This document shows positions 1,263 to 25,680 of a stretch of 64,000 nucleotides of DNA, one piece after another (the stretch's first letter is position 1; each line of letters begins with the position of its first letter). Source of the stretch: a virus. The notes below the pieces were generated by a model. That model searched no databases and was not told where the DNA came from. It saw only the letters and a program-made list of their open reading frames with translations. A program made the translations under genes and the position numbers. The stretch lies in UHGV virus genome UHGV-1430452; one strand, 5' to 3'.

Positions 1263-1297
1263 TTCAATTCCTCCTTTAATAAAAAAATGTTTTATTT

Positions 1298-1322
1298 CAT
1301 TAAAGTAGATGTTTTTTACGCG
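1298..1322 (-). promoter_or_regulatory. Early-box copy 1
   Basis: Plus strand CATTAAAGTAGATGTTTTTTACGCG; 36 nt upstream of the start at 1262. Confidence 0.5.
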
Positions 1323-1580
1323 TTATTTCCTAATAAACTGTCCACATGATCCGCAATAATGATCATACTCAGCTGTAGGTATTGGTGCCTCGCATGTCGG
1401 ACATAATTTAAGAGATCCCTGGTCTGGATCGTCCGCCACTCGATATTTTAATTCACTAACTACTTCTGTAAAAAGATCGGCGTTAGGTCCACCGTTTTTA
1501 ATTTCCAAATCTCTAAGTTCTCTCATTCTATTTACAATATTGATTACTCTCTGATTTCTTTCTTCTAAATATTTTTTCAT
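1323..1580 (-). CDS. Hypothetical protein with C-terminal 4-Cys zinc-ribbon-like motif (85 aa)
   Basis: ORF track; CPTC...(12 aa)...CGSC near the C-terminus; charged helical N-terminus. Confidence 0.6.
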   Translation of the reverse strand: MKKYLEERNQRVINIVNRMRELRDLEIKNGGPNADLFTEVVSELKYRVADDPDQGSLKLCPTCEAPIPTAEYDHYCGSCGQFIRK

Positions 1581-3066: not shown

Positions 3067-3321
3067 TTACTTGCAATGAAATCCCATTACTACTTTTTCT
3101 TCAGATTCATTTTCCTTATTTTCTTCCGGTTCAACTTTGATTTTCGCTTTCTCGCATACCTCCTGTGCGATTTCGTTACCTTCTTTAGCAGCAAACTTCA
3201 ATGTACCAAGGCCGATACCTGTAATAACTGCCTGAGCCATTTCCGCTGCAAACTTACCCATAGCAACTCCAAATGACACTGCAAATGCTGCTTTGCGTAA
3301 ATCTTTAAATTGTCCATTCAT
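3067..3321 (-). CDS. Small Gly/Ala-rich hydrophobic-helix protein with charged tail (84 aa)
   Basis: ORF track; AAAGGAGGAAC SD; box copy 2 upstream and a terminator downstream. Confidence 0.6.
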   Translation of the reverse strand: MNGQFKDLRKAAFAVSFGVAMGKFAAEMAQAVITGIGLGTLKFAAKEGNEIAQEVCEKAKIKVEPEENKENESEEKVVMGFHCK

Positions 3322-3357
3322 TTTAAGTTCCTCCTTTAAGAAATATAGACTTCATTC

Positions 3358-3382
3358 CATTAAAGGCGATGTTTATGTCGCG
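3358..3382 (-). promoter_or_regulatory. Early-box copy 2
   Basis: Plus strand CATTAAAGGCGATGTTTATGTCGCG; upstream of 3067..3321. Confidence 0.55.
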
Positions 3383-3384
3383 TA

Positions 3385-4613: not shown

Positions 4614-4623
4614 CTTATCTCTT

Positions 4624-4649
4624 CATTAAAGCCGTTGTATTTTTCGCGA
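4624..4649 (-). promoter_or_regulatory. Early-box copy 3 (followed by a terminator-like hairpin)
   Basis: Plus strand CATTAAAGCCGTTGTATTTTTCGCGA; upstream of the SSB-like gene. Confidence 0.55.
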
Positions 4650-13950: not shown

Positions 13951-13992
13951 AGAAACAAAAAGAGAAGAGTCCCATAATTGAGACCCGTCTCT
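13951..13992 (-). terminator. Intrinsic terminator after 14012..14317
   Basis: Minus strand AGAGACGGGTC...GACTCTTCTCT then TTTTGTTTCT. Confidence 0.55.
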
Positions 13993-14317: not shown

Positions 14318-14356
14318 AGCAAGATCCTCCTTTAAAATAATTTTAAGTATTTTCTT

Positions 14357-14381
14357 CATAAAGCACTGTGTATTTTTCGCG
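14357..14381 (-). promoter_or_regulatory. Early-box copy 4
   Basis: Plus strand CATAAAGCACTGTGTATTTTTCGCG; upstream of 14012..14317. Confidence 0.5.
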
Positions 14382-14386
14382 TATGA

Positions 14387-15214
14387 TTAATAGTAGCTAT
14401 CGAAACCATATTCCGGAGGCATCAGATGATCAATAACAATACACGGTTCATTATCTTCCGTAATTTGAGCACTATATCTCACATCGATTTTGCCTTTATC
14501 GATTCTCCAACCGATGCTATTACCAACTTCGGTATGCTTAAGACCAATTTCGTCATAGAAATCATTCAGAGAAATATACATCTCGTTACCGTTGATCATT
14601 CTCTCATTAAGAGTAAGAACAGCATTTTTAATCTTGTCGATATCCGATCTGAAATATCTGTCGGAATGACTGTCATAACACAACGTGTTACCTTTACCTG
14701 TCATGATAATCTGAGTGTCTGCAACCGGATGTTCTTCAACTTGCTTCTTAGCGACTTTATCTCTGATGTTATTTTCCTTCTTCTCTCCGATAGTCTCTAC
14801 CACTTTCTCTCTGTAGTCAGACAGTGCTGTTGTAGATAACTGATATGCTGTTGCCAATGCTGCGTTACGTCTTACATGTACGGAATTAGCACCGATAAGA
14901 CAAGCGACTGACGCAATGCCAGTGATAGCTGCTGGAATATAAGGTTTCCAAGCTGCTTTTACTGTTTCGACAGGTGTGAGATTTAAAGCGTTTCTTTCGT
15001 CTTCTTCTGTGAAAATACCGCCTTCATGAGCTTCTTTCTCTTTAAACTTCTTCTCTTCCTCGATTAACTCCATAGCTTTTGGTGTTGCTTTTACTGCAAG
15101 CACAACAGTAGATATCATACCTGCGATACCAATGCCAGTAAGAATTTCCGGACTGCGTTTTTTCATTACATATTTTGCAGTGTTTAAAAATTTTGTTACA
15201 TTTGGTTTGTTCAT
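14387..15214 (-). CDS. Two-TM membrane protein, paralogue 2 of 3 (DUF6353-like)
   Basis: Alignable by eye along its length with 11374..12312 and 16675..17442. Confidence 0.6.
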   Translation of the reverse strand: MNKPNVTKFLNTAKYVMKKRSPEILTGIGIAGMISTVVLAVKATPKAMELIEEEKKFKEKEAHEGGIFTEEDERNALNLTPVETVKAAWKPYIPAAITGIASVACLIGANSVHVRRNAALATAYQLSTTALSDYREKVVETIGEKKENNIRDKVAKKQVEEHPVADTQIIMTGKGNTLCYDSHSDRYFRSDIDKIKNAVLTLNERMINGNEMYISLNDFYDEIGLKHTEVGNSIGWRIDKGKIDVRYSAQITEDNEPCIVIDHLMPPEYGFDSYY

Positions 15215-15262: not shown

Positions 15263-15303
15263 ACTCGGGAAAATTTTGATCTTGAAAAAATAGAAATCGA
15301 AAA

Positions 15304-15375
15304 GAAACAGTGTAGGACTCGAACCCACAACCTACAGATATAAGTCTGTTGCTCTACCAATTGAGCTAACTGTTT
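15304..15375 (-). tRNA. tRNA, probably Ile(UAU), with a 6-nt anticodon loop (72 nt)
   Basis: Hand fold: acceptor AAACAGT/ACTGTTT, D arm GCTC-AATTGGTA-GAGC, anticodon stem ACAGA/TCTGT with loop CTTATA, variable loop AGGTT, T arm GTGGG-TTCGAGT-CCTAC, discriminator C. Confidence 0.7.
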
Positions 15376-15380
15376 CTTCT

Positions 15381-15407
15381 CATAATAGCGCTTGTAAATT
15401 TCGCGAA
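15381..15407 (-). promoter_or_regulatory. Early-box copy 5 (drives the tRNA)
   Basis: Plus strand CATAATAGCGCTTGTAAATTTCGCGAA. The TATTAT ends 6 nt before the mature tRNA 5' end at 15375. Confidence 0.6.
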
Positions 15408-15420
15408 TATAGATCTTCAG

Positions 15421-15452
15421 AAACAAAAAAGAAGAACCCCGAAGGATTCTCC
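15421..15452 (-). terminator. Intrinsic terminator (UUCG tetraloop) after 15452..15622
   Basis: Minus strand GGAGAATCC-TTCG-GGGTTCTTC then TTTTTTGTTT. Confidence 0.65.
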
Positions 15453-15622
15453 TAGACTTTCTTCTGAAGCTCAGAAACTGCTTTCTTCAACTCTTCAAAC
15501 TCCTTTTCTTTTTTCTGATCTGATAATGCACCTGCTATAGCCATAATACCTGTTACTACAACACCTGCATATTTTCCGACAGACTTCAGAAGCGGATTAT
15601 TGATAATACCTTTGAATTTCAT
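15452..15622 (-). CDS. Mini-protein (56 aa, MKFKGIINNPLLKSVGKYAGVVVTGIMAIAGAL + Lys/Glu tail), below the ORF-track cutoff
   Basis: Hand translation; GGAGACGAGAAAA SD; box copy 6 upstream and a UUCG-loop terminator downstream. Confidence 0.55.
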   Translation of the reverse strand: MKFKGIINNPLLKSVGKYAGVVVTGIMAIAGALSDQKKEKEFEELKKAVSELQKKV

Positions 15623-15646
15623 TTTTCTCGTCTCCTTTCTTCATTC

Positions 15647-15672
15647 CATTAAAGGAAATGTTTTTGTCGCGA
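15647..15672 (-). promoter_or_regulatory. Early-box copy 6
   Basis: Plus strand CATTAAAGGAAATGTTTTTGTCGCGA; upstream of 15452..15622. Confidence 0.55.
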
Positions 15673-15709
15673 TACCGGTTTCGCTATATCAAAATATCAT
15701 CGTTTATCG

Positions 15710-16165
15710 TCACCCGTGTATGGGTAAATCCATTTTGATTTTGTCAGGATTCATAATGAGGATACTATCGCAGTCCCAGCCATACAGATCCCAATATAAC
15801 TGATGATCAGCTGATAAATTTAACTCGATGGCATCATAGCCAAGTTCAATGCATTTCTCGAAATCTATCAGTGTACTTATTGATTTCCATACCGGGTCAG
15901 CAATTGTTGGAAGTTCCTTTAATTTTTCTACGGAATCTATAACGAATATATTGGCTTCCGGAAGAGTGAATATGAAACTATTTTCTTCAATACATTCACG
16001 AAAATTTTCTCTTTCACACCAGTCTTTCCAACCTAATTTGGCATCTATCGGACTAGCCCAAAGACCTCCTCTAGGTTTAACCCAGCATTGCTCATTTTGA
16101 ATAGGTTTAAATAAGTTTGGATTAAAAGTTGCATGTCCGTAATGAATATAAATCTTGTCTTGCAT
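15710..16165 (-). CDS. Hypothetical protein (151 aa; a GTG at 16198 is an alternative start)
   Basis: ORF track 15710..16198. The ATG at 16165 has GAAAGGA 7 nt upstream. Confidence 0.6.
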   Translation of the reverse strand: MQDKIYIHYGHATFNPNLFKPIQNEQCWVKPRGGLWASPIDAKLGWKDWCERENFRECIEENSFIFTLPEANIFVIDSVEKLKELPTIADPVWKSISTLIDFEKCIELGYDAIELNLSADHQLYWDLYGWDCDSILIMNPDKIKMDLPIHG

Positions 16166-16203
16166 ATTACTATCCTTTCGTTCAAAAACATATGTCACTT
16201 AGT

Positions 16204-16238
16204 AACAAAAAGAAAAGAGGCCCCTATTTCAGGACCTC
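16204..16238 (-). terminator. Intrinsic terminator overlapping the stop of 16224..16427
   Basis: Minus strand GAGGTCC-tgaaata-GGGGCCTC then TTTTCTTTTTGTT. Confidence 0.6.
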
Positions 16239-16427
16239 AAATTTCTCTTTTTTATTTTTCTTGATTTTATTCTCAACGGATTCTTTCCATTGATTCGCTT
16301 TAGTTGCCACTGCCTGTCTGACTTCTGGAATAGCAAGTGCCGAACCGACAACCGTTACTGCCGGCACAACAATCTGTCCAATCCAAAGTCTTACTTCTCT
16401 CATAGCATCAATATTTTTGCGTTTCAT
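16224..16427 (-). CDS. Mini-protein with hydrophobic helix + Lys-rich tail (67 aa)
   Basis: ORF track; AAAGGAGGATAAAAC SD; box copy 7 upstream and a terminator downstream. Confidence 0.6.
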   Translation of the reverse strand: MKRKNIDAMREVRLWIGQIVVPAVTVVGSALAIPEVRQAVATKANQWKESVENKIKKNKKEKFEVLK

Positions 16428-16459
16428 AGTTTTATCCTCCTTTAAAAATATAATCTTTT

Positions 16460-16485
16460 CATTAAAGGCGTTGTTTATTTAGCGA
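16460..16485 (-). promoter_or_regulatory. Early-box copy 7 (AGCGA variant)
   Basis: Plus strand CATTAAAGGCGTTGTTTATTTAGCGA. It overlaps the stop of 16479..16661. Confidence 0.5.
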
Positions 16486-16661
16486 GTGTAATGGATATGC
16501 TCATTGTTTAATTCGTCGAGATGTTTAATAAAATCTAAATATCTTTTATTTCGTCTATTCTCCACAAAGTTTATAACTAACCAAGCAATCCCTACGATAG
16601 GCAAGCCAACGAATACTAATAGAAATAGTAAGCATGTAATCATAGAAACAAGCGTATTCAT
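16479..16661 (-). CDS. Small membrane protein (60 aa from the SD-supported start)
   Basis: ORF track 16479..16694. The ATG at 16661 has GAAAGGAG upstream. TM segment LLFLLVFVGLPIVGIAWLVI. Confidence 0.55.
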   Translation of the reverse strand: MNTLVSMITCLLFLLVFVGLPIVGIAWLVINFVENRRNKRYLDFIKHLDELNNEHIHYTR

Positions 16662-16674
16662 AAATCTTCTCCTT

Positions 16675-17442
16675 TCAATACTCTTCGTAATCAATGAACG
16701 GCTCTGTGAAATCTACAATATAACATTCAATACCGTCGTCCATTTCTACTTTTGTATGGTGGAAATATAGCCAACCATCCCAGTACATTTCATACATCTG
16801 AGCTGCGGACCAACCCATAAATTCACCGTAATCCTGTCGATCAATCTCTAGTAAATCGTAATAATCGTTTAAAGATGCACCACCGGATTGAGATAGCATT
16901 TTATTAATCTCATACTCTGCTCTCAATTGAGTTTCTTTCGTCACACGGTAATAACGTTTGGAATATTCATCGTAGAATAGTGTTTTGCCATCCTCGTATT
17001 CGTCGTCATATTCTTCTTTGTCTTCTTCCTCGTAATGGTCTTTTGCTACAGCAGCACGAATGAGTTTGTCTCCGTCTTCACCATATAACTTTTTAACTTT
17101 GTTTTTGTACTCTTTGTGAGTTTGGTCTAGTAAGGCATAAGCAGATGCGATGGCTGCTTGGGAATGTTTGTTTAATAGATTCGCGCCAAATATGCAAGCT
17201 AGGGTTCCTGTTCCAATCAATAAGGAAGGAATATATGTTGGTCCTGCTACTCGAATAGTCTCCCATTTTGTTAATTCATCTCCTTTCTCTTCTTCAGCTA
17301 GTTCAATAAGTTCCATTGCTTTCGGAGTAGCTTTAACCGCCATTACAGCTGTACCTACCACTCCGGCAGCTCCTAATACTGTTAATATAGTAGAGCTGTT
17401 TTTCTTTACGAATCTTTTCGAAACTGTTAGTAAGTCATTCAT
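16675..17442 (-). CDS. Two-TM membrane protein, paralogue 3 of 3 (DUF6353-like)
   Basis: ORF track 16675..17451; ATG at 17442 preferred over the GTG. It shares VKATPKAMELIE with paralogue 2. Confidence 0.6.
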   Translation of the reverse strand: MNDLLTVSKRFVKKNSSTILTVLGAAGVVGTAVMAVKATPKAMELIELAEEEKGDELTKWETIRVAGPTYIPSLLIGTGTLACIFGANLLNKHSQAAIASAYALLDQTHKEYKNKVKKLYGEDGDKLIRAAVAKDHYEEEDKEEYDDEYEDGKTLFYDEYSKRYYRVTKETQLRAEYEINKMLSQSGGASLNDYYDLLEIDRQDYGEFMGWSAAQMYEMYWDGWLYFHHTKVEMDDGIECYIVDFTEPFIDYEEY

Positions 17443-17472
17443 TTCCAGCACGCTCCTTGGCGATAAATTTGG

Positions 17473-17528
17473 TAAAAATAAAAAGAGAAAGAAAAGAGTC
17501 AGCTTGTTGTGTAAACCAAGTCTAACTC
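17473..17528 (-). terminator. Terminator-like hairpin + long U-rich run located downstream of box copy 8, in the leader of paralogue 3
   Basis: Minus strand GAGTTAGACTTG-gtttacacaa-CAAGCTGACTC then TTTTCTTTCTCTTTTTATTTTT. Confidence 0.45.
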
Positions 17529-17563
17529 AATTCTTTTTGTCATTATCCGAAATAACAATATCC

Positions 17564-17590
17564 CATAACAGGTGATGTAATTTTCGCGAA
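17564..17590 (-). promoter_or_regulatory. Early-box copy 8 (followed by a terminator-like hairpin)
   Basis: Plus strand CATAACAGGTGATGTAATTTTCGCGAA. Confidence 0.55.
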
Positions 17591-17593
17591 TCC

Positions 17594-17815
17594 CTACTGC
17601 TCAAAAAATAAAACTACATCTACCGGATCTTTGAAGTGCTGCTCCTCCACTACTTCTTTAAATTCTTCAAATGATTCCGGTTCGTATTCTTGTAAATATA
17701 AAATCTGTTCAAGCAATCTTCCGTAAAATCCTTGAGAATTAGATAGCATTTTTACCACACCAATGACTTGTTCAACATCATAACCGTCTGCTTTCTTTTC
17801 CATAGCGTTTGCCAT
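17594..17815 (-). CDS. Hypothetical acidic protein (73 aa from the SD-supported start)
   Basis: ORF track 17594..17824. The ATG at 17815 sits in the recurrent GGAG..TTCAAAATG context. It is preceded by a ~170-nt GC-rich leader. Confidence 0.6.
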   Translation of the reverse strand: MANAMEKKADGYDVEQVIGVVKMLSNSQGFYGRLLEQILYLQEYEPESFEEFKEVVEEQHFKDPVDVVLFFEQ

Positions 17816-17993
17816 TTTGAACACTCCTTTAATTGGTTTTTGATAAAAATAAAAAGAGAATACAATGACTTCAGGGTCGGCCCAACGAAAACCGTTGCCC
17901 GGTGGGTAGCATGTTTTATTACGTTATTACGTGCCGCTACGCCTTCGTGTCTCACCACTGGATTTCCACCAGTATCTATCCATTGCTTTCTCT
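17816..17993 (-). ncRNA. Candidate structured 5' leader / cis-regulatory RNA (class unknown)
   Basis: This ~170-nt gap between box copy 9 and the start at 17815 is visibly GC-richer than its surroundings. Several helices can be drawn: CUGG/CCAG, GUAGC/GCUAC with GUGG/CCAC, ACGU/ACGU and CAACG/CGUUG. Confidence 0.35.
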
Positions 17994-18020
17994 CATAATA
18001 GGTGATGTAATTTTCGCGAA
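17994..18020 (-). promoter_or_regulatory. Early-box copy 9 (consensus copy; followed by the GC-rich leader)
   Basis: Plus strand CATAATAGGTGATGTAATTTTCGCGAA. Confidence 0.6.
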
Positions 18021-18047
18021 TAGAAAAAGAAAATGCCTAGTTTTTAA

Positions 18048-18311
18048 CTAGACAAATTCTTTAATAATTATTGTTCCACCAACTACATCGATTTTTATTT
18101 TATTCATCGCTTTCAACATACTAGCCACTTTTTGCACTGGTAACTTACTTGTGAAACCATAGAACACCAAGTCGCCCATGGTATATACATGCCCTACTGA
18201 ATACTTAACTTCAATATCGGCTGTATATTTGCCAAGGCAATCCATTGCTCCTAAATTTTTCACAACTTCGTTTTTATTCGCGCATAAAGTAATTTCATAT
18301 TTAGTAAACAT
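18048..18311 (-). CDS. Hypothetical protein (87 aa)
   Basis: ORF track; TAAGGAGGAAT SD; box copy 10 upstream. Confidence 0.6.
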   Translation of the reverse strand: MFTKYEITLCANKNEVVKNLGAMDCLGKYTADIEVKYSVGHVYTMGDLVFYGFTSKLPVQKVASMLKAMNKIKIDVVGGTIIIKEFV

Positions 18312-18346
18312 ATAAATTCCTCCTTATTCGATTTCATTGTTTTTCT

Positions 18347-18373
18347 CATAATAGGTGATGTAATTTTCGCGAA
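18347..18373 (-). promoter_or_regulatory. Early-box copy 10 (identical to copy 9)
   Basis: Plus strand CATAATAGGTGATGTAATTTTCGCGAA. Confidence 0.6.
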
Positions 18374-18410
18374 AACAAAAGAGAAAGGGCCCATGTTACT
18401 GAGCCACTTT
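18371..18410 (-). terminator. Intrinsic terminator after 18396..18536
   Basis: Minus strand GAAAGTGGC...GCCCTTTC then TCTTTTGTTTTC. Confidence 0.5.
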
Positions 18411-18536
18411 CGCTTTCTTATGATTTTTAACTGCTTTCTTAGAAACCTCTACTGCTTTATTCACTGCATCACTTGCCAAACTACCGACTACCAATCCGCC
18501 AGCAATCTCAATAATGTGTCTAACTAAAACATTCAT
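18396..18536 (-). CDS. Mini-protein (46 aa, MNVLVRHIIEIAGGLVVGSLASDAVNKAVEVSKKAVKNHKKAKVAQ), below the ORF-track cutoff
   Basis: Hand translation; AGGAGGAATC SD; box copy 11 upstream and a terminator overlapping the stop. Confidence 0.55.
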   Translation of the reverse strand: MNVLVRHIIEIAGGLVVGSLASDAVNKAVEVSKKAVKNHKKAKVAQ

Positions 18537-18572
18537 TTTAGATTCCTCCTGTTAAGCAATTTATTATCTTTC

Positions 18573-18599
18573 CATAATAGGACTTGTAATTTTCGCGAA
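18573..18599 (-). promoter_or_regulatory. Early-box copy 11
   Basis: Plus strand CATAATAGGACTTGTAATTTTCGCGAA. Confidence 0.6.
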
Positions 18600-18630
18600 T
18601 TAAAAGAAAAGACACCGTGTTTCAGGTGCC
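18600..18630 (-). terminator. Intrinsic terminator after 18630..18857
   Basis: Minus strand GGCACC-tgaaacac-GGTGTC then TTTTCTTTTAATT. Confidence 0.55.
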
Positions 18631-18857
18631 TAATCCTCTGAATCAACCATTTGTTCAATTTTCAGTAATACTTTCTGATCAATTTCTCCATCCGCATTGA
18701 TATGAAATCGTATTTTACCATCCTTCATCTCAGCTTCTATCTCACTAATACGGATGTCTGGTTTGACTCCAATATTTTTGTATATAGCTCTAGATATAAG
18801 TTTGGCTACCATACCTCTCATAAATCTAGTAGATAATTTAATTTTCATTTCGTCCAT
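18630..18857 (-). CDS. Hypothetical protein (75 aa)
   Basis: ORF track; GGAGGAGGTAATT SD; box copy 12 upstream and a terminator downstream. Confidence 0.6.
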   Translation of the reverse strand: MDEMKIKLSTRFMRGMVAKLISRAIYKNIGVKPDIRISEIEAEMKDGKIRFHINADGEIDQKVLLKIEQMVDSED

Positions 18858-18884
18858 AATTACCTCCTCCTTCTAGGTTGTTTC

Positions 18885-18912
18885 CTATAATAGGGGAAGT
18901 TTAAGTCGCGAA
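18885..18912 (-). promoter_or_regulatory. Early-box copy 12
   Basis: Plus strand CTATAATAGGGGAAGTTTAAGTCGCGAA. Confidence 0.55.
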
Positions 18913-18944
18913 AACAAAAGAAAGAGCAGTGGGTGACACCGCTC
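18911..18944 (-). terminator. Intrinsic terminator after 18944..19051
   Basis: Minus strand GAGCGGTG-tcacc-CACTGCTC then TTTCTTTTGTTTT. Confidence 0.6.
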
Positions 18945-19051
18945 TAACTGTTTCTCAAAAATCGAATGAGAATCCATACAAGCCATAATCCTCCGGTTGC
19001 AAATACTAATACAAAGTCGATAAGCAATCCGAATAATCCACGCTTTTTCAT
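18944..19051 (-). CDS. Mini membrane protein (35 aa, MKKRGLFGLLIDFVLVFATGGLWLVWILIRFLRNS)
   Basis: Hand translation; AAAGGAGAAGATAATC SD. I prefer it over the overlapping 61-aa ORF-track frame (18885..19070), whose ATG lies inside the SD. Confidence 0.5.
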   Translation of the reverse strand: MKKRGLFGLLIDFVLVFATGGLWLVWILIRFLRNS

Positions 19052-19078
19052 GATTATCTTCTCCTTTCATTTTCTTTT

Positions 19079-19103
19079 CACAATAGGAGAAGTTTTTATC
19101 GCG
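19079..19103 (-). promoter_or_regulatory. Early-box copy 13
   Basis: Plus strand CACAATAGGAGAAGTTTTTATCGCG. Confidence 0.5.
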
Positions 19104-19123
19104 TGCATTATCAGTTCCTTCAA

Positions 19124-19156
19124 ATACAAAATAAAAGAGACCAATCGGCCTCTCTT
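19124..19156 (-). terminator. Intrinsic terminator after 19155..19304
   Basis: Minus strand AGAGAGGCC-gatt-GGTCTCT then TTTATTTTGTATTT. Confidence 0.55.
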
Positions 19157-19304
19157 ACATGTTTCGTTTAGAAAGTTCTTCTGCTACCTTCTTTGCAATC
19201 TTTTCATCCAATAACTTATCTGTACTTTGTTTCCCTGCGAATGTTAATCCCGCACTAACAATAGCTGTTATAAGCTTTGCAATTCTAATTACTTTTGGTG
19301 ACAT
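19155..19304 (-). CDS. Mini-protein (49 aa, MSPKVIRIAKLITAIVSAGLTFAGK + Lys/Glu tail), below the ORF-track cutoff
   Basis: Hand translation; GAAAGGAGGTATATTT SD; box copy 14 upstream and a terminator downstream. Confidence 0.55.
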   Translation of the reverse strand: MSPKVIRIAKLITAIVSAGLTFAGKQSTDKLLDEKIAKKVAEELSKRNM

Positions 19305-19319
19305 AAATATACCTCCTTT

Positions 19320-19347
19320 CTATAATAGAAGAGGTTTAAATCGCGCG
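19320..19347 (-). promoter_or_regulatory. Early-box copy 14
   Basis: Plus strand CTATAATAGAAGAGGTTTAAATCGCGCG. It overlaps the stop of 19336..19695. Confidence 0.5.
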
Positions 19348-19695
19348 TCTATCGAAGCAAGTTTCCCATCGTTCTCGCTTAACTGGCTTCATTTTCATAG
19401 TCCACATCATTTGTCGGACCGTTACGGTGGGATATAAACCGTTCTCAGGTTCTCCCGATCTATCCTCGAAGAACTCCAGGAATCTTTCATGTAAATATAA
19501 AGTGTCTGTCAGCCACGGATCAATCTCGCCCCACCAGGTATTTTTCGTCGCTGGATCATATCGCTGCTGAATAACAGCTAGTCCTTTTCGTCCCATTTTG
19601 AATAAAGTACATTTACTGTAAACTGGATGATCACATTCATAAGTTTCTCCGTACATCGATACATAAACTTTTGGCTTTTCGTAGTGATAACGCAT
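19336..19695 (-). CDS. Hypothetical protein (119 aa)
   Basis: ORF track; AAAGGATAATAGTAAT SD-like region; box copy 15 upstream. Confidence 0.6.
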   Translation of the reverse strand: MRYHYEKPKVYVSMYGETYECDHPVYSKCTLFKMGRKGLAVIQQRYDPATKNTWWGEIDPWLTDTLYLHERFLEFFEDRSGEPENGLYPTVTVRQMMWTMKMKPVKRERWETCFDRRAI

Positions 19696-19723
19696 ATTAC
19701 TATTATCCTTTCTTTAACTTTAG

Positions 19724-19751
19724 TTATATAACTTTTGTTTAAACTCTCGCG
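19724..19751 (-). promoter_or_regulatory. Early-box copy 15 (divergent)
   Basis: Plus strand TTATATAACTTTTGTTTAAACTCTCGCG; between the tRNA-like element and 19336..19695. Confidence 0.4.
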
Positions 19752-19791
19752 TTAGGAAATATAAAAGAAGAAAAAAAAAGAAAAGACTATG

Positions 19792-19868
19792 GGAATAGCG
19801 CGGGATTCGAACCCACGACGTTGAGTTTCCTCTTATTCTTCCATTAGAACTAACCGTCTTAACTATTC
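19792..19868 (-). tRNA. tRNA-like element with canonical acceptor + T arm but a non-canonical body (77 nt; isotype undetermined, possibly a pseudo-tRNA)
   Basis: Acceptor GAATAGT/GCTATTC; T arm GTGGG-TTCGAAT-CCCGC. The 45-nt interior cannot be folded into D + anticodon arms. It pairs instead as GACGGTTAGTT/AACTCAACGTC around a purine-rich 20-nt loop. Confidence 0.5.
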
Positions 19869-19917
19869 CAGAGACTTCTTCCGATATATTGCTATACGGG
19901 AATTGTTCTCTTCTTTT

Positions 19918-19945
19918 CTATAATAGGAAATGTTTATTTAGCGAA
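19918..19945 (-). promoter_or_regulatory. Early-box copy 16 (upstream of the tRNA-like element, ~45-nt leader)
   Basis: Plus strand CTATAATAGGAAATGTTTATTTAGCGAA. Confidence 0.5.
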
Positions 19946-19977
19946 AGAAAATAGCCCAGGCGTTTAACCCGAGCTAA
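19944..19977 (-). terminator. Intrinsic terminator after 19989..20357
   Basis: Minus strand TAGCTCGGG-ttaaacg-CCTGGGCTA then TTTTCTTTC. Confidence 0.6.
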
Positions 19978-19988
19978 TTCTCTTAAAC

Positions 19989-20357
19989 TTATTCGTTACC
20001 ATTGAGTTTCTCAATAGCTTCAACCTTCCTGCTGTCAAACATCGTAGAATTTACAATACTCATCACAGCTTTGTAATATGTTTTCGGCTGATCCTTCTTG
20101 AGCAACTCTATCGCCTGAACTTTACGACTATCAAACATGCTGCTGTTCATTATCGAAGCTACCGCACTGTCATAATCTGCTGTGCTAAATATATCCGCTA
20201 ATAAATCAACTTCATATGTGTCCTGTTTTCGTTTCTTTTCACGCAATACAACTGCCACAATTGGAATCGCAATACCAATCCCATTTGCTACATATTCTGT
20301 GATTTTCCATAAACTCTCTTTTGTTTTCTCGCTAGTTAAAACTTCTTTGATTTTCAT
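19989..20357 (-). CDS. N-terminally anchored protein with an internal duplication (122 aa)
   Basis: ORF track; repeat SIMNSSMFDSRKVQAIELL / SIVNSTMFDSRKVEAIEKL; box copy 17 upstream. Confidence 0.6.
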   Translation of the reverse strand: MKIKEVLTSEKTKESLWKITEYVANGIGIAIPIVAVVLREKKRKQDTYEVDLLADIFSTADYDSAVASIMNSSMFDSRKVQAIELLKKDQPKTYYKAVMSIVNSTMFDSRKVEAIEKLNGNE

Positions 20358-20384
20358 ATCAATAACCTCCTATAAGTTTATTCT

Positions 20385-20411
20385 CATAACAGGCGTTGTA
20401 ATAATAGCGAA
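20385..20411 (-). promoter_or_regulatory. Early-box copy 17
   Basis: Plus strand CATAACAGGCGTTGTAATAATAGCGAA. Confidence 0.5.
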
Positions 20412-20447
20412 AAAGAAGAGCCTAAGTCATTTCGACTCAAGCCCTTC
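20409..20447 (-). terminator. Intrinsic terminator after 20458..20841
   Basis: Minus strand GAAGGGCTTGAGTC-gaaat-GACTTAGGCTCTTC then TTTTTCGC. Confidence 0.65.
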
Positions 20448-20457
20448 CATTTTGAAA

Positions 20458-20841
20458 TTACTTTTTTGGGAGTAACTTCTGAATGAATCCTCGACCCATT
20501 ATTGTTGTGATGGTTCCAGTCTCTTCGAATTTGATAGACTTGATTGTGCCCCAGATAGTAACCGCTGTCGGTATAACAATACCCGCTCCTGTTAAGCAAT
20601 TCTTAACAACTCGATCTTTTCGTTCATCTTTAAGCTGCTCTGCTCTTAATTCAGCATCAACATTTTGCTGATCCTTTTTAAGTTCTTGTTCAGCCTTAAT
20701 TTTCTCAAGTTCGATTGCTCGATCACATAACTTTGTCAGGCCGTCTACCGTATTTTTGTACTTATCTGTACCTACTTCAAGTTTTCCTAACTCTTCGAAT
20801 TCGTCCTGAATCTCATCTTTTAATAATGTTTCAATACTCAT
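20458..20841 (-). CDS. Coiled-coil protein with C-terminal TM segment (127 aa from the SD-supported start)
   Basis: ORF track 20458..20871. The ATG at 20841 follows AAGGAGGAGTTCAAA. The ATG at 20871 is the ATG of box copy 18. Confidence 0.6.
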   Translation of the reverse strand: MSIETLLKDEIQDEFEELGKLEVGTDKYKNTVDGLTKLCDRAIELEKIKAEQELKKDQQNVDAELRAEQLKDERKDRVVKNCLTGAGIVIPTAVTIWGTIKSIKFEETGTITTIMGRGFIQKLLPKK

Positions 20842-20868
20842 TTTGAACTCCTCCTTATATTCGTATTT

Positions 20869-20894
20869 CATAATAGGGAATGTTATTTTTGCGA
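20869..20894 (-). promoter_or_regulatory. Early-box copy 18
   Basis: Plus strand CATAATAGGGAATGTTATTTTTGCGA. It overlaps the stop of 20883..21092. Confidence 0.5.
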
Positions 20895-21092
20895 CAGATC
20901 TACTCTAAGCATTACGTGTTTATCTTTTCGTAGCTTATATGCCTTACCACTATCTATTTCTAAAAATAAATACGGTGCTGAGTCTGGATCTGAGCTGTCT
21001 ACTTTCAGTGTGCCGATTGGCTTTTTTACTAAGAGTGTCGTTGCCACAACTGCACCTATCAGCATACCTACTAATAAAAATAAAAGTTCCAC
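20883..21092 (-). CDS. Small N-terminally anchored protein (69 aa, GTG start)
   Basis: ORF track 20883..21158. The GTG at 21092 has AGGAGGA 6 nt upstream. The GTG at 21158 has no SD. Confidence 0.5.
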   Translation of the reverse strand: MELLFLLVGMLIGAVVATTLLVKKPIGTLKVDSSDPDSAPYLFLEIDSGKAYKLRKDKHVMLRVDLSQK

Positions 21093-21113
21093 TACGCTAC
21101 TTCCTCCTTTCTT

Positions 21114-21136
21114 CAATAGAATTGTTTTATCGAAAA
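21114..21136 (-). promoter_or_regulatory. Early-box copy 19 (degenerate, TCGA instead of TCGCGA)
   Basis: Plus strand CAATAGAATTGTTTTATCGAAAA. Confidence 0.3.
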
Positions 21137-21235
21137 CTCCCTCCCGGGAAATTTTCACTTTAGAATTTTAATATTGTTTCCTGTCACCTATGTACGGAAT
21201 ATCTATTCTAGATTAGAGTTTGTTTTAATCTAGGT

Positions 21236-21262
21236 TAAAGAAAAAAGAGAGCCTAAGCCCTC
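21236..21262 (-). terminator. Intrinsic terminator overlapping the stop of 21253..21489
   Basis: Minus strand GAGGGC-ttag-GCTCTC then TTTTTTCTTT. Confidence 0.5.
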
Positions 21263-21489
21263 TTATCTGTCATAAAACTTGGTAACTGAAGTTCTGGTTT
21301 ATAAGTCATTAACTCTGCTTCATATAGCCTCATGATAATAGCTATCTCATCTTCATGAATACTTTTTATCAACTTAAAGACTTTATCATAATCAACATCT
21401 GATTTATTCTTCATTTGACAAATATAATCCACGAGTCTGGTATACTTATCATCCGCAGTTCCTATCATTGCCGCAAATTTAACTTCCAT
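21253..21489 (-). CDS. Hypothetical protein (78 aa)
   Basis: ORF track; TAAGGAGGATAAATT SD; box copy 20 upstream and a terminator downstream. Confidence 0.6.
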   Translation of the reverse strand: MEVKFAAMIGTADDKYTRLVDYICQMKNKSDVDYDKVFKLIKSIHEDEIAIIMRLYEAELMTYKPELQLPSFMTDKRA

Positions 21490-21523
21490 AATTTATCCTC
21501 CTTAAATTTAAAGTTTTATGTTT

Positions 21524-21551
21524 CTATAAAGTAGTATGTATTTTTGGCGAA
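21524..21551 (-). promoter_or_regulatory. Early-box copy 20 (GGCGAA variant)
   Basis: Plus strand CTATAAAGTAGTATGTATTTTTGGCGAA. Confidence 0.45.
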
Positions 21552-21585
21552 AAAGAAAAGAAGAGACCGATTAGGCCTCCTCTTT
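21549..21585 (-). terminator. Intrinsic terminator after 21571..21771
   Basis: Minus strand AGAGGAGGCC-taatc-GGTCTCTTCT then TTTCTTTTTC. Confidence 0.6.
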
Positions 21586-21771
21586 AAATAACTCAGGGTA
21601 TTTCTCCATCAGTTCTTTTCTGTCTCGTTCAATGTCTTTTTCTATATGCTCGATTTCTGCTTCCAATTTACCTGTGCTTTTACCTAAACGGTAACCCAGA
21701 TAAGATCCTACAGCATAAACCAATCCGGCATATAAACCAAAACCTAAACCAGCTTTTAAATTAGCTTTCAT
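21571..21771 (-). CDS. Mini-protein, Gly-rich hydrophobic helix + charged coiled tail (66 aa; YtxH-like appearance)
   Basis: ORF track; TAGGAGTGATC SD; box copy 21 upstream and a terminator downstream. Confidence 0.6.
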   Translation of the reverse strand: MKANLKAGLGFGLYAGLVYAVGSYLGYRLGKSTGKLEAEIEHIEKDIERDRKELMEKYPELFKEEA

Positions 21772-21797
21772 GATAGATCACTCCTATAATTTATTCT

Positions 21798-21823
21798 CAT
21801 AATAGGCGTTGTTTTAGTCGCGA
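21798..21823 (-). promoter_or_regulatory. Early-box copy 21
   Basis: Plus strand CATAATAGGCGTTGTTTTAGTCGCGA. The TCGCGA lies in the last codons of 21814..22002. Confidence 0.55.
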
Positions 21824-22002
21824 TCATCAAACGGTACTTCTATGTTTTCAATCTCGTCAGAAATAATCTCCCCGTCACCGATAAGTAGTTCTCTTTTGTT
21901 TATTTGATTAACGCTAGTTCGATATATACCCTCAGCTACTGCTAGTCCGATAAATGTACTTACTCCCCAAAGAATTCCTTTGATTAATTTATTAGTATCC
22001 AT
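21814..22002 (-). CDS. Small membrane-anchored acidic protein (62 aa from the SD-supported start)
   Basis: ORF track 21814..22062. The ATG at 22002 follows GAGAGGAAAATTCAAA. The longer frame would run through the upstream terminator hairpin. Confidence 0.55.
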   Translation of the reverse strand: MDTNKLIKGILWGVSTFIGLAVAEGIYRTSVNQINKRELLIGDGEIISDEIENIEVPFDDRD

Positions 22003-22037
22003 TTTGAATTTTCCTCTCATGATATATTCTCTATTGG

Positions 22038-22070
22038 AAATCAAAAGGAAGAGTATCTGCATAGATACCC
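22038..22070 (-). terminator. Intrinsic terminator after 22083..22298
   Basis: Minus strand GGGTATCT-atgc-AGATACTC then TTCCTTTTGATTT. Confidence 0.55.
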
Positions 22071-22082
22071 GCCTTTTTGTTT

Positions 22083-22298
22083 TTAATTATTGCTTGTGGT
22101 CCAACCCATGTTGTTCTGTGTGAATGAGTTGTTAATGCCGTTGATAGTTCTTACTCTATCCTCGTACAATGAATTGTCGCTAATGATGCTAACTCCGAAT
22201 TTCCATTTGAAGTCTGGAATTTCGTTAGCTGCTTTCATAGCTTCATCCCATTTCTCAAGGAAGACTTCTATCGCATATCCTCTCTCTACACTATCCAT
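22083..22298 (-). CDS. Hypothetical protein (71 aa)
   Basis: ORF track; AAAGGAGGGTAACGAC SD; box copy 22 upstream. Confidence 0.6.
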   Translation of the reverse strand: MDSVERGYAIEVFLEKWDEAMKAANEIPDFKWKFGVSIISDNSLYEDRVRTINGINNSFTQNNMGWTTSNN

Positions 22299-22325
22299 GT
22301 CGTTACCCTCCTTTATAATAATTTT

Positions 22326-22353
22326 CTATAAAGGAGCGTGTAATTTTCGCGAA
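22326..22353 (-). promoter_or_regulatory. Early-box copy 22
   Basis: Plus strand CTATAAAGGAGCGTGTAATTTTCGCGAA; the first copy downstream of the regulator gene. Confidence 0.55.
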
Positions 22354-22401
22354 TATCTAATCCCGTGCATTAATCAACTTCAGATTCTCACTTCGTTCTA
22401 A

Positions 22402-22821
22402 TCAATCCCTAGCATTCGATAGCAGCCAAAAGAACCTTCTGTACCTGTCGTAATACATGTCTCTACCGCACGGAATATCTAACTTTGACCGCAGGTAAGT
22501 ATACGATAAACCCTCTGTAACCGCTTTTAAAATGTAATCGTACAAATAACGGTCTGCATCCAAAGCTATCCTCTCGATTAGATCGATTTTCTCTTTATAA
22601 TAAGCTCTCAAGATTGCTCTCTTACCTGTTGGATCACCAGGCATATTGCTCGTTGGGATTTTCTCGATCATGGATAACGGTACAGAATGATCGTTAAAAG
22701 CAGCATAAGCACTCTTCCATATCGGATACTGTAAACAAAAATGTTTTAGTTCGTAATATCGATGTTTGCTAATCCAGTATTTGTTGTTCTCAGACAGCTC
22801 TGGACGTATTCTTGTTGCCAT
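22402..22821 (-). CDS. Putative phage transcription regulator (sigma region-4 / RinA-ArpU-like; tentative)
   Basis: 139 aa. It is the second gene (after the hand-called 56-aa ORF 22790..22960) downstream of cro in the early leftward operon. The C-terminal LSYTYLRSKLDIPCGRDMYYDRYRRFFWLL resembles HTH tails of small phage activators. No search was run. Confidence 0.35.
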   Translation of the reverse strand: MATRIRPELSENNKYWISKHRYYELKHFCLQYPIWKSAYAAFNDHSVPLSMIEKIPTSNMPGDPTGKRAILRAYYKEKIDLIERIALDADRYLYDYILKAVTEGLSYTYLRSKLDIPCGRDMYYDRYRRFFWLLSNARD

Positions 22822-22960: not shown

Positions 22961-22962
22961 CA

Positions 22963-23172: not shown

Positions 23173-23214
23173 GCACATCACCTCTCGCTGTATTTGTCGC
23201 TTATCTGCAACAAC

Positions 23215-23247
23215 ACGAGAATATCACCAGCTTACTTTTTCTGTCAA
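23215..23247 (-). promoter_or_regulatory. Candidate leftward (cro/early) sigma-A-type promoter
   Basis: On the minus strand, TTGACA (plus 23242..23247) is followed after 16-18 nt by TGATATTCT. The exact -10 register is ambiguous. Confidence 0.45.
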
Positions 23248-23276
23248 TAACTTTTTCGCATAAAACGAAAACGATT

Positions 23277-23288: not shown

Positions 23289-23296
23289 CAATTTAT

Positions 23297-23397: not shown

Positions 23398-23994
23398 ATG
23401 ACAATAGGACAAAAAATAAAAGAATTACGCAATCAACTTAATATGTCGGTGGATGATCTTGCTGTGAAACTGGGTAAGAACCGTGCGACTATCTACCGCT
23501 ATGAACGAGGAGATATCGAGAACCTCCCTCTCGATGTACTAGAACCATTAGCAAATGCTCTTGAGACCACACCTGGTTATTTAATGGGATGGGAAGAAAC
23601 TACGAAAAAGAAAGAGCCTTCAATTATCGATGAAGTTACCATGGGTGACGTTTTTAAAGCGTTACGTCTAGGAAGTAATTTATCGATAGAGGAATTTTCG
23701 CATGAGATTGGATTATCTGCCCAAGACATAAGCAATTATGAAGCAGGAAAGACTCCTATACCTGTAAATATAATTAATCTTGTTGCTGATTTCTTTGGCA
23801 TATCAATAGCGGAAATAGTTAAGGCACACAAAAACAGCGAAAATAGAACGCCTTCTGGTTTCGAAATGAAAAAGGAACGATTTGAACGTTTTAAAGTTTG
23901 GAATAAAGAGTTTGGACGAATACATTTTACTGATGAAGAAATCAATAAAATAATGGAATATACAAGGTTCTTACTTAGCCAAAGAAGACAGTAA
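23398..23994 (+). CDS. CI-like repressor with two XRE-type HTH domains and no S24 peptidase domain
   Basis: IGQKIKELRNQLNMSVDDLAVKLGKNRATIYRYERG and FKALRLGSNLSIEEFSHEIGLSAQDISNYEAG are both HTH_XRE-like. The C-terminus is short and lacks Ser/Lys protease motifs. Confidence 0.75.
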   Translation: MTIGQKIKELRNQLNMSVDDLAVKLGKNRATIYRYERGDIENLPLDVLEPLANALETTPGYLMGWEETTKKKEPSIIDEVTMGDVFKALRLGSNLSIEEFSHEIGLSAQDISNYEAGKTPIPVNIINLVADFFGISIAEIVKAHKNSENRTPSGFEMKKERFERFKVWNKEFGRIHFTDEEINKIMEYTRFLLSQRRQ

Positions 23995-24079
23995 GTCTAC
24001 ATAGGTTTACTCTATTTAAAGGAGGTGATGCCTGAATTCAGTTCATCGTAGAATTTACATCAAAGGAAAGGTGGAACCA

Positions 24080-25657: not shown

Positions 25658-25680
25658 ATGGTGGCTTTGCTGCCTGTAAG

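Follow-up and report, generated by a model that had tools for sequence, protein, structure and literature searches.

Lambdoid morons, as described by Hendrix and colleagues, are single genes with a promoter and a terminator of their own that lie between phage genes; they are usually isolated, are read with host sigma-70 and are expressed from the repressed prophage. The host-takeover module of SPO1 holds many tiny early genes in short operons that have their own promoter, of the sigma-A type, and their own terminator. Stoperators of the cluster A mycobacteriophages (the L5 gp71 sites) occur in many asymmetric copies, all in one orientation and in short intergenic gaps, and have the same sequence as the early-promoter operator. 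In T4-like phages, promoter-early stem-loop (PeSL) cassettes have been described, and recombination of nearby motifs of this class yields encapsidated mini-circles (Arbiol et al. 2010, PMC2839356; Comeau et al. 2014, PMC4122927). Here we analyse a 64-kb stretch of the virus genome UHGV-1430452 (hereafter the window), in whose early region a 29-bp sequence, which we call the box, recurs ahead of small accessory genes and small RNAs that are separated by terminators.

This array resembles the PeSL cassettes in that a composite intergenic motif of terminator and promoter is present in tens of copies, within hyperplastic regions and 5' of small ORFans, and in that close relatives differ by insertions, deletions and replacements with breakpoints at the motifs, a pattern for which insulation and modular shuffling have been proposed. 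PeSL promoters, however, fit the E. coli sigma-70 consensus and their stem-loop varies in position, whereas the 29-bp box does not appear to be of the sigma-70 type and its hairpin always lies upstream; the hosts here are gut Firmicutes, the phages are temperate siphophages, and the cargo includes tRNA-like and other small RNAs. An earlier, sequence-only reading of the region had called its design unusual for a phage early region, a view that the PeSL precedent (PMC2839356, PMC4122927) does not bear out. With morons the array shares autonomous promoter-gene-terminator units that hold accessory genes and vary in presence, but it is dense, uses one putatively phage-specific box and is probably silent in the lysogen. 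The explanation that we favour, with a probability of about 0.6, is a cassette array in which the box acts as a phage-specific promoter, with a YonO-like RNA polymerase as its preferred reader. The design is probably a variant of the PeSL principle with a non-sigma-70 promoter of the phage-polymerase type, which would extend PeSL-type shuffling beyond T4-like myophages and sigma-70 promoters and looks like a general way of maintaining an exchangeable pool of accessory genes.

Box arrays and cassette anatomy

The window belongs to a temperate, Oengusvirus-like siphophage related to Faecalibacterium phage FP_oengus, and all genes from 23181 down to 1 lie on its minus strand. The early region runs leftward from a TTGACA promoter at 23247 through a cro-like gene, a gene for a 57-aa basic protein and the gene for a 139-aa protein of phrog_11237, behind which the boxes begin. 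A position-weight scan of the window, seeded from obvious copies, found 20 boxes from 1295 to 22352, all 20 on the minus strand, compared with 0–1 in shuffled sequence; 17 of the 20 fall between 14354 and 22352, inside 8 kb of accessory genes. From 220 unique copies pooled over related loci we obtained the consensus tT-CGCG-AAAA-WW-ACA-N4-C-T-w-TTATG-RRA, in which C2, G3, C4, C13, T22, A24, T25 and G26 vary little or not at all; variants of the box include TCGCGA...TATTATG and ACGCGA...TTTATGG. A T-rich stretch abuts the 5' side of these copies and the sequence farther upstream is unconserved; the 5' half of the box and the preceding T-run together form the palindrome TTTTCGCGAAAA, and TTCGCGAA is one half of the box.

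Orientation is as constant as sequence. Over more than 130 related loci we collected 813 unique copies, almost none of them antisense, and in the loci picked solely by homology to the 139-aa protein a downstream co-oriented array was present in 77 of 77 (530 boxes in 299 kb, two antisense). The cultured phage FP_oengus has 15 co-oriented boxes from 2285 to 27683, with none antisense and none in the late region, and MT835485 has 24, again with none antisense. The exact pattern, with 22 specified bases, matches 29 IMG/VR stretches and five GTDB contigs, mostly as co-oriented multi-copy arrays with a GC content of 30–47%; a few of these sequences hold a lone copy, two host-like contigs of metagenome-assembled genomes (MAGs) among them. 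Co-oriented box arrays are a trait of this lineage and recur in every related locus checked, and the early-region observation as a whole is confirmed. They amount to a regulatory grammar for an abundant and unannotated lineage of gut phages, whose 139-aa marker forms about 7,900 protein clusters at 90% identity and is encoded by at least 538 IMG/VR stretches; the one cultured member is FP_oengus, on Faecalibacterium prausnitzii.

The two lone copies in host-like contigs (L030:6045-6070 and L032:684-709; related loci are given L numbers throughout) lie on MAG contigs of uncultured Bacilli, 156 and 313 kb long, and appear to be chromosomal. The box of L030 is 5' of a gene for a 173-aa protein that adjoins a pyrimidine-nucleoside phosphorylase gene, the sequence downstream of the box in L032 is near-identical, and farther on there is a separate TGnTACAAT-like promoter. 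These single boxes may be relics or a hint at recognition by the host.

Between 13000 and 23500 we counted 19 hairpins followed by a T-run, about four-fold more than in shuffles (5.0 ± 2.2), 18 of them on the minus strand; generic sigma-70 pattern matches in the same interval were not enriched (34 vs 34.7 in shuffles). Hairpin and U-run terminators had been proposed for most genes, and this excess and the 12 complete units of box, open reading frame (ORF) and terminator in the window bear the proposal out. That almost every gene has its own box was an overstatement: among the 21 protein genes between 14.0 and 22.4 kb, 12 stand immediately behind a full box, the DUF6353 gene at 16675-17442 is preceded by a box and a terminated leader, and eight have no full box of their own, with a degenerate box at 22002, 21095 and 19695, no box at 17815, 16165 and 15214, and co-transcription at 16661. 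The replication genes from 13938 to 4937 (about 9 kb, minus strand) contain no box and sit behind the terminator at 13967-13986, so that read-through or antitermination must occur under any model. Monocistrony of the units is putative and, taken strictly, cannot be complete.

At most junctions the T-run of the terminator continues straight into the box. Over the 813 boxes, a hairpin of −10 kcal/mol or below lies within 52 nt upstream in 54% (16% at random positions), a Shine-Dalgarno sequence and a start codon follow in 88% at a median distance of 27 nt, first ORFs measure 70 aa at the median (60 aa or less in 36%), and the median spacing from box to box is 410 nt. We propose that a junction is made up of an intrinsic-terminator hairpin, a T-run, the 29-bp box and a 5' untranslated region of about 27 nt with a strong Shine-Dalgarno sequence, followed by the cargo, which would be a protein of 35–150 aa or a small structured RNA. 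Such a junction would stop the upstream transcript and begin a new one, making the small cargo an insulated expression unit, and the region of the array would be the hyperplastic accessory part of the early region.

Cassettes differ between close relatives in ways that follow these junctions. We compared the near-identical loci L036, L037, L038 and L039 with one another and the window with L040. Measured from a box start, breakpoints in the arrays fall at +27 to +59 nt; others fall in or beside the terminator that precedes the next box, at −6 to −28, and some lie at the terminator of a unit with no box after it; the exception is an insertion at window 16655-16674, away from any box. Between L036 and L039, homology runs out on the final base of a box and a single box-to-box unit is lacking, and a second segment is swapped from 9 nt past a box to the terminator ahead of the next. 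A 139-bp box-RNA-terminator unit is present in one of L036 and L037 and absent from the other. Relative to L040, the ORF body at 21256-21491 alone is replaced, from start codon to terminator, and L040 has an additional cassette of about 300 bp at the junction at 20407, flanked by duplicated junction sequence. Cassette order is also permuted, since L042 and L044 have the tRNA cassette and that of the 21489 type on the opposite side of the 19304-type cassette. These comparisons support the view that it is whole cassettes, delimited by box and terminator, that phages gain, lose, swap and reshuffle; the suggestion that they are individually exchangeable thus holds up among relatives, where whole box-to-box units are present or absent, breakpoints lie at junctions and order is shuffled. 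The junctions have about 60–70 nt in common and so would provide portable homology for recombination.

Transcript start and promoter class

Four boxes of the window precede RNAs: a tRNA (15303-15376), a tRNA-like RNA (19792-19869), a non-coding RNA (ncRNA) of about 135 nt (17857-17990) and a terminated leader (17490-17560). The claim that the cassettes encode proteins is right for most of them and not for these four. The 5' ends of the structured RNAs bear on where transcription starts. Of the box-linked tRNA genes, 16 of 16 have G1 at −3 to +2 nt relative to the box end; their 7-bp acceptor stem, G1 included, is kept by covariation, and the terminal stem begins at box position 28-29 in both the ncRNA and the tRNA-like RNA. 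The 5' ends of three RNA families hence imply that transcripts begin at or before position 29, and transcription probably starts at about G26–A29, with G26 as the probable first base. With +1 at G26 the box would span about −25 to +4, TTATG would read T-3 A-2 T-1 G+1, and the conserved blocks would follow one another at intervals of one helical turn, at about −23 (CGCG), −13 (ACA) and −7 to +4.

Such a start is difficult to combine with sigma-70. A sigma-70 −10 element at box positions 20-25 would require a start near position 32, and a start at 26-29 puts the −12 to −7 window on box positions 14-22, among which 15-18 have the lowest conservation in the box. There is no −35 element, and the would-be A-11 position is A in just 55% of copies. 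Because of the missing −35, the weak A-11 and the RNA 5' ends at 26-29, the box does not appear to be of the sigma-70 type, and we infer that it is a phage-specific promoter that is not read with sigma-A. Our first working reading, a sigma-70 promoter with T20-T25 as the −10 and a MotA-like −30 element, was ruled out by the tRNA and ncRNA 5' ends, and the 5' ends implied by the three structured RNAs make the earlier proposal of TATTATG as a −10-like element untenable. In the MotA-dependent middle promoters of T4 a phage-specific element centred near −30 replaces the −35, and the sigma-70 −10 is retained with a start about 7 nt downstream; the geometry of the box differs in not allowing a −10 so placed.

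A phage-specific promoter would need a phage-encoded reader, and the roughly 20 promoters of the window would stay silent in the lysogen. We regard it as very improbable that the boxes are ordinary host sigma-A early promoters with TATTAT as the −10, and the cassettes classical morons or PeSLs read by unmodified host polymerase. Some 20 constitutive promoters, feeders of the replication genes included, would then be on in the lysogen, which makes a host-only reading unlikely for a temperate phage. TATTAT/TTTAAT is similar to TATAAT and the upstream T-run could be an UP element, but CGCG, ACA and G26 are invariant though sigma-70 ignores these positions, the −35 is missing and the A-11 equivalent weak, and the phage's own cro promoter is of the canonical TTGACA type. 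Transcripts that started near position 32 would lack part of the tRNAs and of the terminal stems of the ncRNAs. The arrays of L006 and L012, which begin right behind lysis genes with the regulator not in view, and the lone boxes 5' of a host gene in two MAGs are what a host-read promoter would predict.

It is also improbable, in our judgement, that the box is mainly a protein-binding or RNA-level site, whether as a stoperator like those of L5 gp71, as a place where the 139-aa protein loads as a Q-type antiterminator, as an RNA-processing site or just as a recombination hotspot. Like stoperators, the boxes are asymmetric, numerous and intergenic, in short gaps and in one orientation to transcription; they differ from stoperators in carrying features of an initiation site and in their absence from the cI/cro region, where the interval from 22353 to 26000 holds no full box, no 5' half and no minus-strand 3' half. 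The palindrome formed by the T-run and the 5' half of the box would suit a bound protein, the replication genes behind 13967-13986 need read-through, and breakpoints fall at boxes. An invariant 3' half, a fixed distance to Shine-Dalgarno sequence and start codon and abutting RNA 5' ends nonetheless indicate initiation, and boxes that follow strong terminators imply a new start for the genes downstream. The box is moreover kept in L038 despite the loss of the whole lysogeny module. We rejected three candidates: a repressor operator (no copy in the cI/cro region), anti-Shine-Dalgarno pairing of the pyrimidine-rich N4-C segment with the downstream Shine-Dalgarno sequence (about 3 bp possible, by eye), and the CodY, cre and sigma-54 consensus sequences (spacing or bases mismatch the box).

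Candidate readers of the box

Promoters of phage-encoded polymerases (T7 class II/III, phiKZ, AR9, and the non-virion and virion polymerases of P23-45) resemble the box in having a long conserved motif that runs up to and across the start, here the start implied by RNA structure. Late promoters of the non-virion RNA polymerase (nvRNAP) of phiKZ read T-3ATG+1 and those of the AR9 nvRNAP AACA-N6-T-A/G+1 (PMC7598289); for the P23-45 nvRNAP a repeated conserved motif stands at early and middle genes, and the host polymerase makes the late genes (bioRxiv 10.1101/2022.12.01.518664). As in phiKZ the box has TATG with G at +1, and as in AR9 it has an ACA block upstream, although the spacing from ACA to start differs (−11 to −8 in AR9 vs −14 to −12 in the box). 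The lineage encodes a two-barrel, YonO-like polymerase, but the gene for it itself lies behind a box.

A preprint has described FP_oengus gp55 as a two-barrel RNA polymerase of the YonO/crAss-like kind, with helix-turn-helix (HTH) domains at its termini. In L212, the closest relative, the counterpart of window gene 63003..63446 has a 1053-aa ORF with a DFDGD motif (L212:1914-5075) about 950 nt upstream of it, and 32 of 35 relatives with full flank have a YonO-like polymerase; in L003 and L004 the polymerase adjoins the arrays, with no 139-aa protein nearby. A tblastn search for this polymerase in the window and MT835485 gave no match, both sequences ending before the expected position. A polymerase fused to the tape measure, as in P23-45, was rejected, as the 2515-aa tape-measure protein has no DxDxD; the other large window proteins have none either, save an unrelated DVDYD.

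We put the chance that the reader is the lineage's YonO-like single-chain two-barrel RNA polymerase a little short of even, and this is the least secure step of the proposed mechanism. The 139-aa protein, made from the sigma-A promoter at 23247, would be a specificity factor for this polymerase or a factor through which host polymerase gains its first access to the polymerase gene. The most specific form of the idea, which we hold tentatively, makes the 29-bp box the YonO-like polymerase's promoter, the 139-aa protein its specificity factor or a booting antiterminator, and the junctions the means of a polymerase-specific 'plug-and-play' trade in small membrane proteins, small RNAs (sRNAs) and tRNA-like RNAs with hypervariable anticodon loops. 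If true, the box would give the first promoter consensus for this class of polymerase, an open question since 2017, as a 29-bp candidate promoter for YonO-like single-chain polymerases in a cultivable system.

Several points weigh against the favoured explanation. Hairpins with a U-run are the classic termination signal of bacterial polymerase. The transcription start is placed by RNA structure and not by transcript mapping, the 16 tRNAs are homologous and could reflect one ancestral fusion, and lone box copies occur in the two host-like MAG contigs. The polymerase gene is outside the window; synteny with relatives would put its homologue about 350 nt past the right end. The polymerase operon itself stands behind a terminator and a box, with no good sigma-A promoter, which poses a bootstrapping problem for a polymerase that reads boxes, unless it is delivered with the virion, reached by host read-through or made through weak host activity of the box. 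The gap upstream of the late operon, 63753-64000, shows no box and no good sigma-A match and is not conserved by blastn. Among close analogues YonO of SPbeta alone has been characterised; it reads the late operon from one start site, and no promoter is known for it (PMC5467207).

The bootstrapping problem would be gone if host RNA polymerase, redirected by the 139-aa phrog_11237 protein, read the box, either with the protein as a minimal sigma-like factor or with it as an activator that replaces the −35, like T4 MotA/AsiA or the RinA/ArpU class. The cascade would lead from the sigma-A promoter to cro and the 139-aa factor, from there to the box promoters of accessory genes, replication genes and the YonO-like polymerase, and through the phage polymerase to the late genes, which fits both YonO as a late-gene polymerase and box-driven polymerase operons; intrinsic terminators, too, suit host polymerase. 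The 139-aa gene is the last conserved one of the sigma-A-driven immediate-early operon, and the first box begins −6 to +11 nt from the stop codon of this gene in 23 loci, and no more than about 400 nt away in almost all. The co-oriented arrays downstream of it in all 77 loci chosen by protein homology alone point the same way, but this co-occurrence could be mere synteny within one lineage, and the arrays of L004, L006/L028/L034 and L012 have no homologue in 8–14 kb of sequence. Starts at 26-29 also leave no space for a sigma-type −10 some 5–9 nt upstream, where positions 15-18 are least conserved. We consider host polymerase redirected in this way unlikely, if far from negligible.

The protein itself is predicted to be all-helical (model with pLDDT 85.9; a first AlphaFold model, at 59.9, was too poor for use). 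Among its structural neighbours in BFVD are DUF1492, sigma-70 region 4 and 'activator' proteins, all of them weak (TM-score about 0.3–0.5, E = 0.2–4), and the fold of the Q21 antiterminator scores equally well. There was no sequence match in Pfam or NCBIfam, in both cases even at E = 10, none in PDB, and no Foldseek match against PDB. On these models the 139-aa protein is a candidate for a box-specific factor or an antiterminator. It does not fit the late activators of the RinA/ArpU/DUF1492 kind: it matches no family model and shares a likeness at the level of the fold only, and its gene heads the early region after cro and is not just 5' of the packaging or late operon.

Cargo, feature coordinates and neighbouring genes

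Nearly every cassette product has diverged full-length homologues among 290 fetched loci, with carrier loci per product ranging from 97 down to 0. The four ORFs of 35–56 aa that hand translation had added below a 60-aa cutoff all have full-length homologues in other phages, at 33–90% identity, and all have a strong Shine-Dalgarno sequence. Nucleotide differences by codon position (first, second, third) were 15, 9 and 26 for 19155..19304 against L043, 8, 4 and 17 for 18944..19051 against L053, 14, 9 and 29 for 15452..15622 against L038, and 18, 9 and 22 for 18396..18536 against L097. Homologues, Shine-Dalgarno sequences and the excess of third-position differences indicate that these small ORFs are genuine genes. 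Equally correct was the dismissal of the ORF starts at 14359 and 20871 as artefacts: their ATG lies in the box, and the starts preceded by AGGAGG are at 14317 and 20841. A box with a Shine-Dalgarno sequence is a reliable anchor for calling tiny genes that ORF callers miss or mis-start.

A hydrophobic 17-residue segment (Kyte-Doolittle mean of at least 1.5) is present in 13 of the 21 products (about 60%); the rest of the products, which had been described as membrane or amphipathic proteins, lack one. The architecture that at least six products were said to share comes down to a common hydrophobic helix with no detectable homology; phmmer among the small proteins and against the DUF6353 N-terminus linked just the three DUF6353 paralogues. 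Searches of the cargo against Pfam, PHROGs and NCBIfam returned just families of 'unknown function' or sub-threshold noise. Roles in the host envelope, in superinfection or in anti-defence are plausible, and the small membrane proteins, the structured ncRNA and the tRNA-like genes with 6- or 8-nt loops are candidates for host takeover, superinfection exclusion and anti-defence.

Among the RNAs, the tRNA-like RNA has a canonical T-arm, GGTTCGAATCC, on a non-tRNA body (fold z = −2.9), and neither ARAGORN nor Rfam makes a call on it. The ncRNA is 88–97% identical in eight loci whose neighbour genes are only 58–70% identical, shows compensatory changes at five or more base pairs, with covarying pairs in the outer stem, and matches no Rfam family. 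The coordinates of all features are collected in Table 1.

Table 1. Boxes, genes, RNAs, predicted terminators and other features of the early region and lysogeny module in the window
Feature	Coordinates	Strand	Remarks
Serine recombinase	24071..25657	+	
XRE repressor-like protein	23398..23994	+	198 aa, two HTH_3 domains in a single chain
Canonical sigma-A-type promoter (TTGACA-16/18-GATATT/TATTCT)	23218..23247	-	5' of cro-like gene; 10/12 matches, top minus-strand match of the region
cro-like HTH protein, 72 aa	22963..23181	-	Weak HTH_8/HTH_7/DUF739 matches; divergent to XRE repressor and serine recombinase
139-aa conserved protein, phrog_11237	22402..22821	-	Head of box array; sigma-region-4-like C-terminal HTH
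Box 1	22324..22352	-	31.2 bits
Cassette gene, 71 aa	22083..22298	-	
Terminator	22051..22070	-	
Gene, 62 aa, hydrophobic N-terminus	21814..22002	-	Just a degenerate 3' half-box upstream
Box 2	21795..21823	-	37.6 bits
Cassette gene, 66 aa	21571..21771	-	Gly-rich hydrophobic helix, then charged helix
Terminator	21557..21585	-	
Box 3	21522..21550	-	24.5 bits
Cassette gene, 78 aa	21253..21489	-	ORF body swapped in L040
Terminator	21245..21264	-	
Gene, 70 aa, phrog_15309	20883..21095	-	N-terminal transmembrane (TM) helix; degenerate box 5'; 39 loci
Box 4	20866..20894	-	Own ATG at 20871 is a false ORF start
Cassette gene, 127 aa, phrog_15866	20458..20841	-	Widely conserved, 94 loci
Terminator, 16-bp stem	20414..20448	-	
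Box 5	20382..20410	-	Extra cassette of ~300 bp at junction in L040
Cassette gene, 122 aa, TM helix	19989..20357	-	
Terminator	19952..19976	-	
Box 6	19916..19944	-	Ahead of tRNA-like RNA
tRNA-like RNA	19792..19869	-	7-8-bp acceptor stem and GGTTCGAATCC T-arm
Gene, 119 aa, phrog_17256	19336..19695	-	Top cassette cargo by conservation, 97 loci; degenerate box 5'
Box 7	19318..19346	-	
Cassette gene, 49 aa	19155..19304	-	Hand-called ORF, confirmed
Terminator	19131..19158	-	
Box 8	19076..19104	-	
Cassette gene, 35 aa, TM	18944..19051	-	Hand-called ORF, confirmed
Terminator	18923..18945	-	
Box 9	18883..18911	-	
Cassette gene, 75 aa, phrog_18243	18630..18857	-	48 loci
Terminator	18610..18631	-	
Box 10	18570..18598	-	
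Cassette gene, 46 aa	18396..18536	-	Hand-called ORF, confirmed; rare
Terminator	18388..18405	-	
Box 11	18344..18372	-	
Cassette gene, 87 aa	18048..18311	-	
Terminator	18034..18054	-	
Box 12	17991..18019	-	Ahead of ncRNA
Structured ncRNA, ~135 nt	17857..17990	-	U-run after terminal stem
Gene, 73 aa, acidic	17594..17815	-	Box-less
Box 13	17561..17589	-	
Short leader or sRNA	17490..17560	-	Hairpin and T-run end; 5' of DUF6353 gene
DUF6353 paralogue	16675..17442	-	N-terminal TM helix
Gene, 60 aa, TM	16479..16661	-	Co-transcribed with DUF6353
Box 14	16457..16485	-	
Cassette gene, 67 aa, TM	16224..16427	-	
Terminator	16217..16238	-	
Gene, 151 aa	15710..16165	-	Box-less; homologue in 0 of 290 fetched loci
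Box 15	15644..15672	-	
Cassette gene, 56 aa	15452..15622	-	Hand-called ORF, confirmed
Terminator	15430..15453	-	
Box 16	15378..15406	-	Ahead of tRNA; G1 2 nt past box end
tRNA gene	15303..15376	-	6-nt anticodon loop (CUUAUA)
DUF6353 paralogue	14387..15214	-	
Box 17	14354..14382	-	Own ATG at 14359 is a false ORF start
Cassette gene, 101 aa	14012..14317	-	Central Gly/Ala TM helix, then Lys-rich tail
Terminator	13967..13986	-	Box-free replication genes downstream
Box 18	4621..4649	-	Terminator with 15-bp stem (4583-4616) directly after; 5' of ssDNA-binding gene
Box 19	3355..3383	-	5' of 84-aa gene 3067..3321
Box 20	1295..1323	-	

Homologues of the tRNA at 15303-15376 were found in L052, L099, L061, L092, L109, L071, L079, L090, L063, L017 and FP_oengus (L128:2935-3006). 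Their acceptor stem, D arm and T arm are nearly identical and their anticodon arm is hypervariable, with loops of 6 nt ('ta', 'aa', 'ga', 'gt') or 8 nt ('gata', 'gcga'), a 19-nt insertion in one copy, and Phe(AAA), Leu(UAA), Ile(UAU) and CUA suppressor anticodons. This pattern is suggestive of diversifying selection on the loop, which might, for instance, act as a decoy for anticodon nucleases, confer resistance to them or serve in recoding. At about 830-880 in L003, a T-arm-like sequence, GGGTTCGAATCCCGT, lies downstream of a box and is similar to the T-arm of the tRNA-like RNA of the window. After some boxes a strong terminator comes almost immediately, giving an RNA of about 40–120 nt with no ORF (window 4583-4649 and 17490-17589, both minus strand, and L036:13068-13200); such RNAs could be sRNAs in their own right or attenuators close to the promoter that precede the ssDNA-binding and DUF6353 genes. 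L036 has one unit of this sort that L037 lacks.

Outside the array, structural, lysis and tail genes occupy the window from 64000 down to 26000, among them TerL, a protease-capsid fusion and the tape-measure protein. The lysogeny module is on the plus strand and consists of an XRE repressor with two HTH domains and a large serine recombinase; the promoter at 23218..23247 presumably serves as the immediate-early promoter. Besides the array itself, the part of the early region downstream of the 139-aa gene encodes three DUF6353 paralogues, a primase-polymerase-like protein of 1408 aa (DUF5906) and an ssDNA-binding protein. Between FP_oengus and the window, identity is 70.6% for TerL, 53% for the primase-polymerase and 40% for gp03, the homologue of the 139-aa protein. 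A megablast search of 14–23.5 kb against 50,697 phage records gave a single 173-bp match and no near-identical known phage, and a literature search turned up no mention of DUF6353, phrog_11237 or the box sequence in a phage context.

The three DUF6353 paralogues (11374-12312, 14387-15214 and 16675-17442, minus strand) are diverged and interleaved with cassettes, each with an N-terminal Gly/Ala-rich TM helix, and FP_oengus likewise carries three copies. In the near-identical relative L038 (Logan ERR11027628 contig, 9688-10001) the recombinase, repressor and cro genes are all gone and the 139-aa gene comes directly after the holin gene; this phage may have arisen in nature as a virulent derivative by deletion. 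In the tail module of the window, directly 5' of the tape-measure gene and not among the lysis genes, a gene at 48832-50550 (minus strand) encodes a 572-aa protein with a GH25 muramidase domain, a CHAP domain and four CW_7 repeats.

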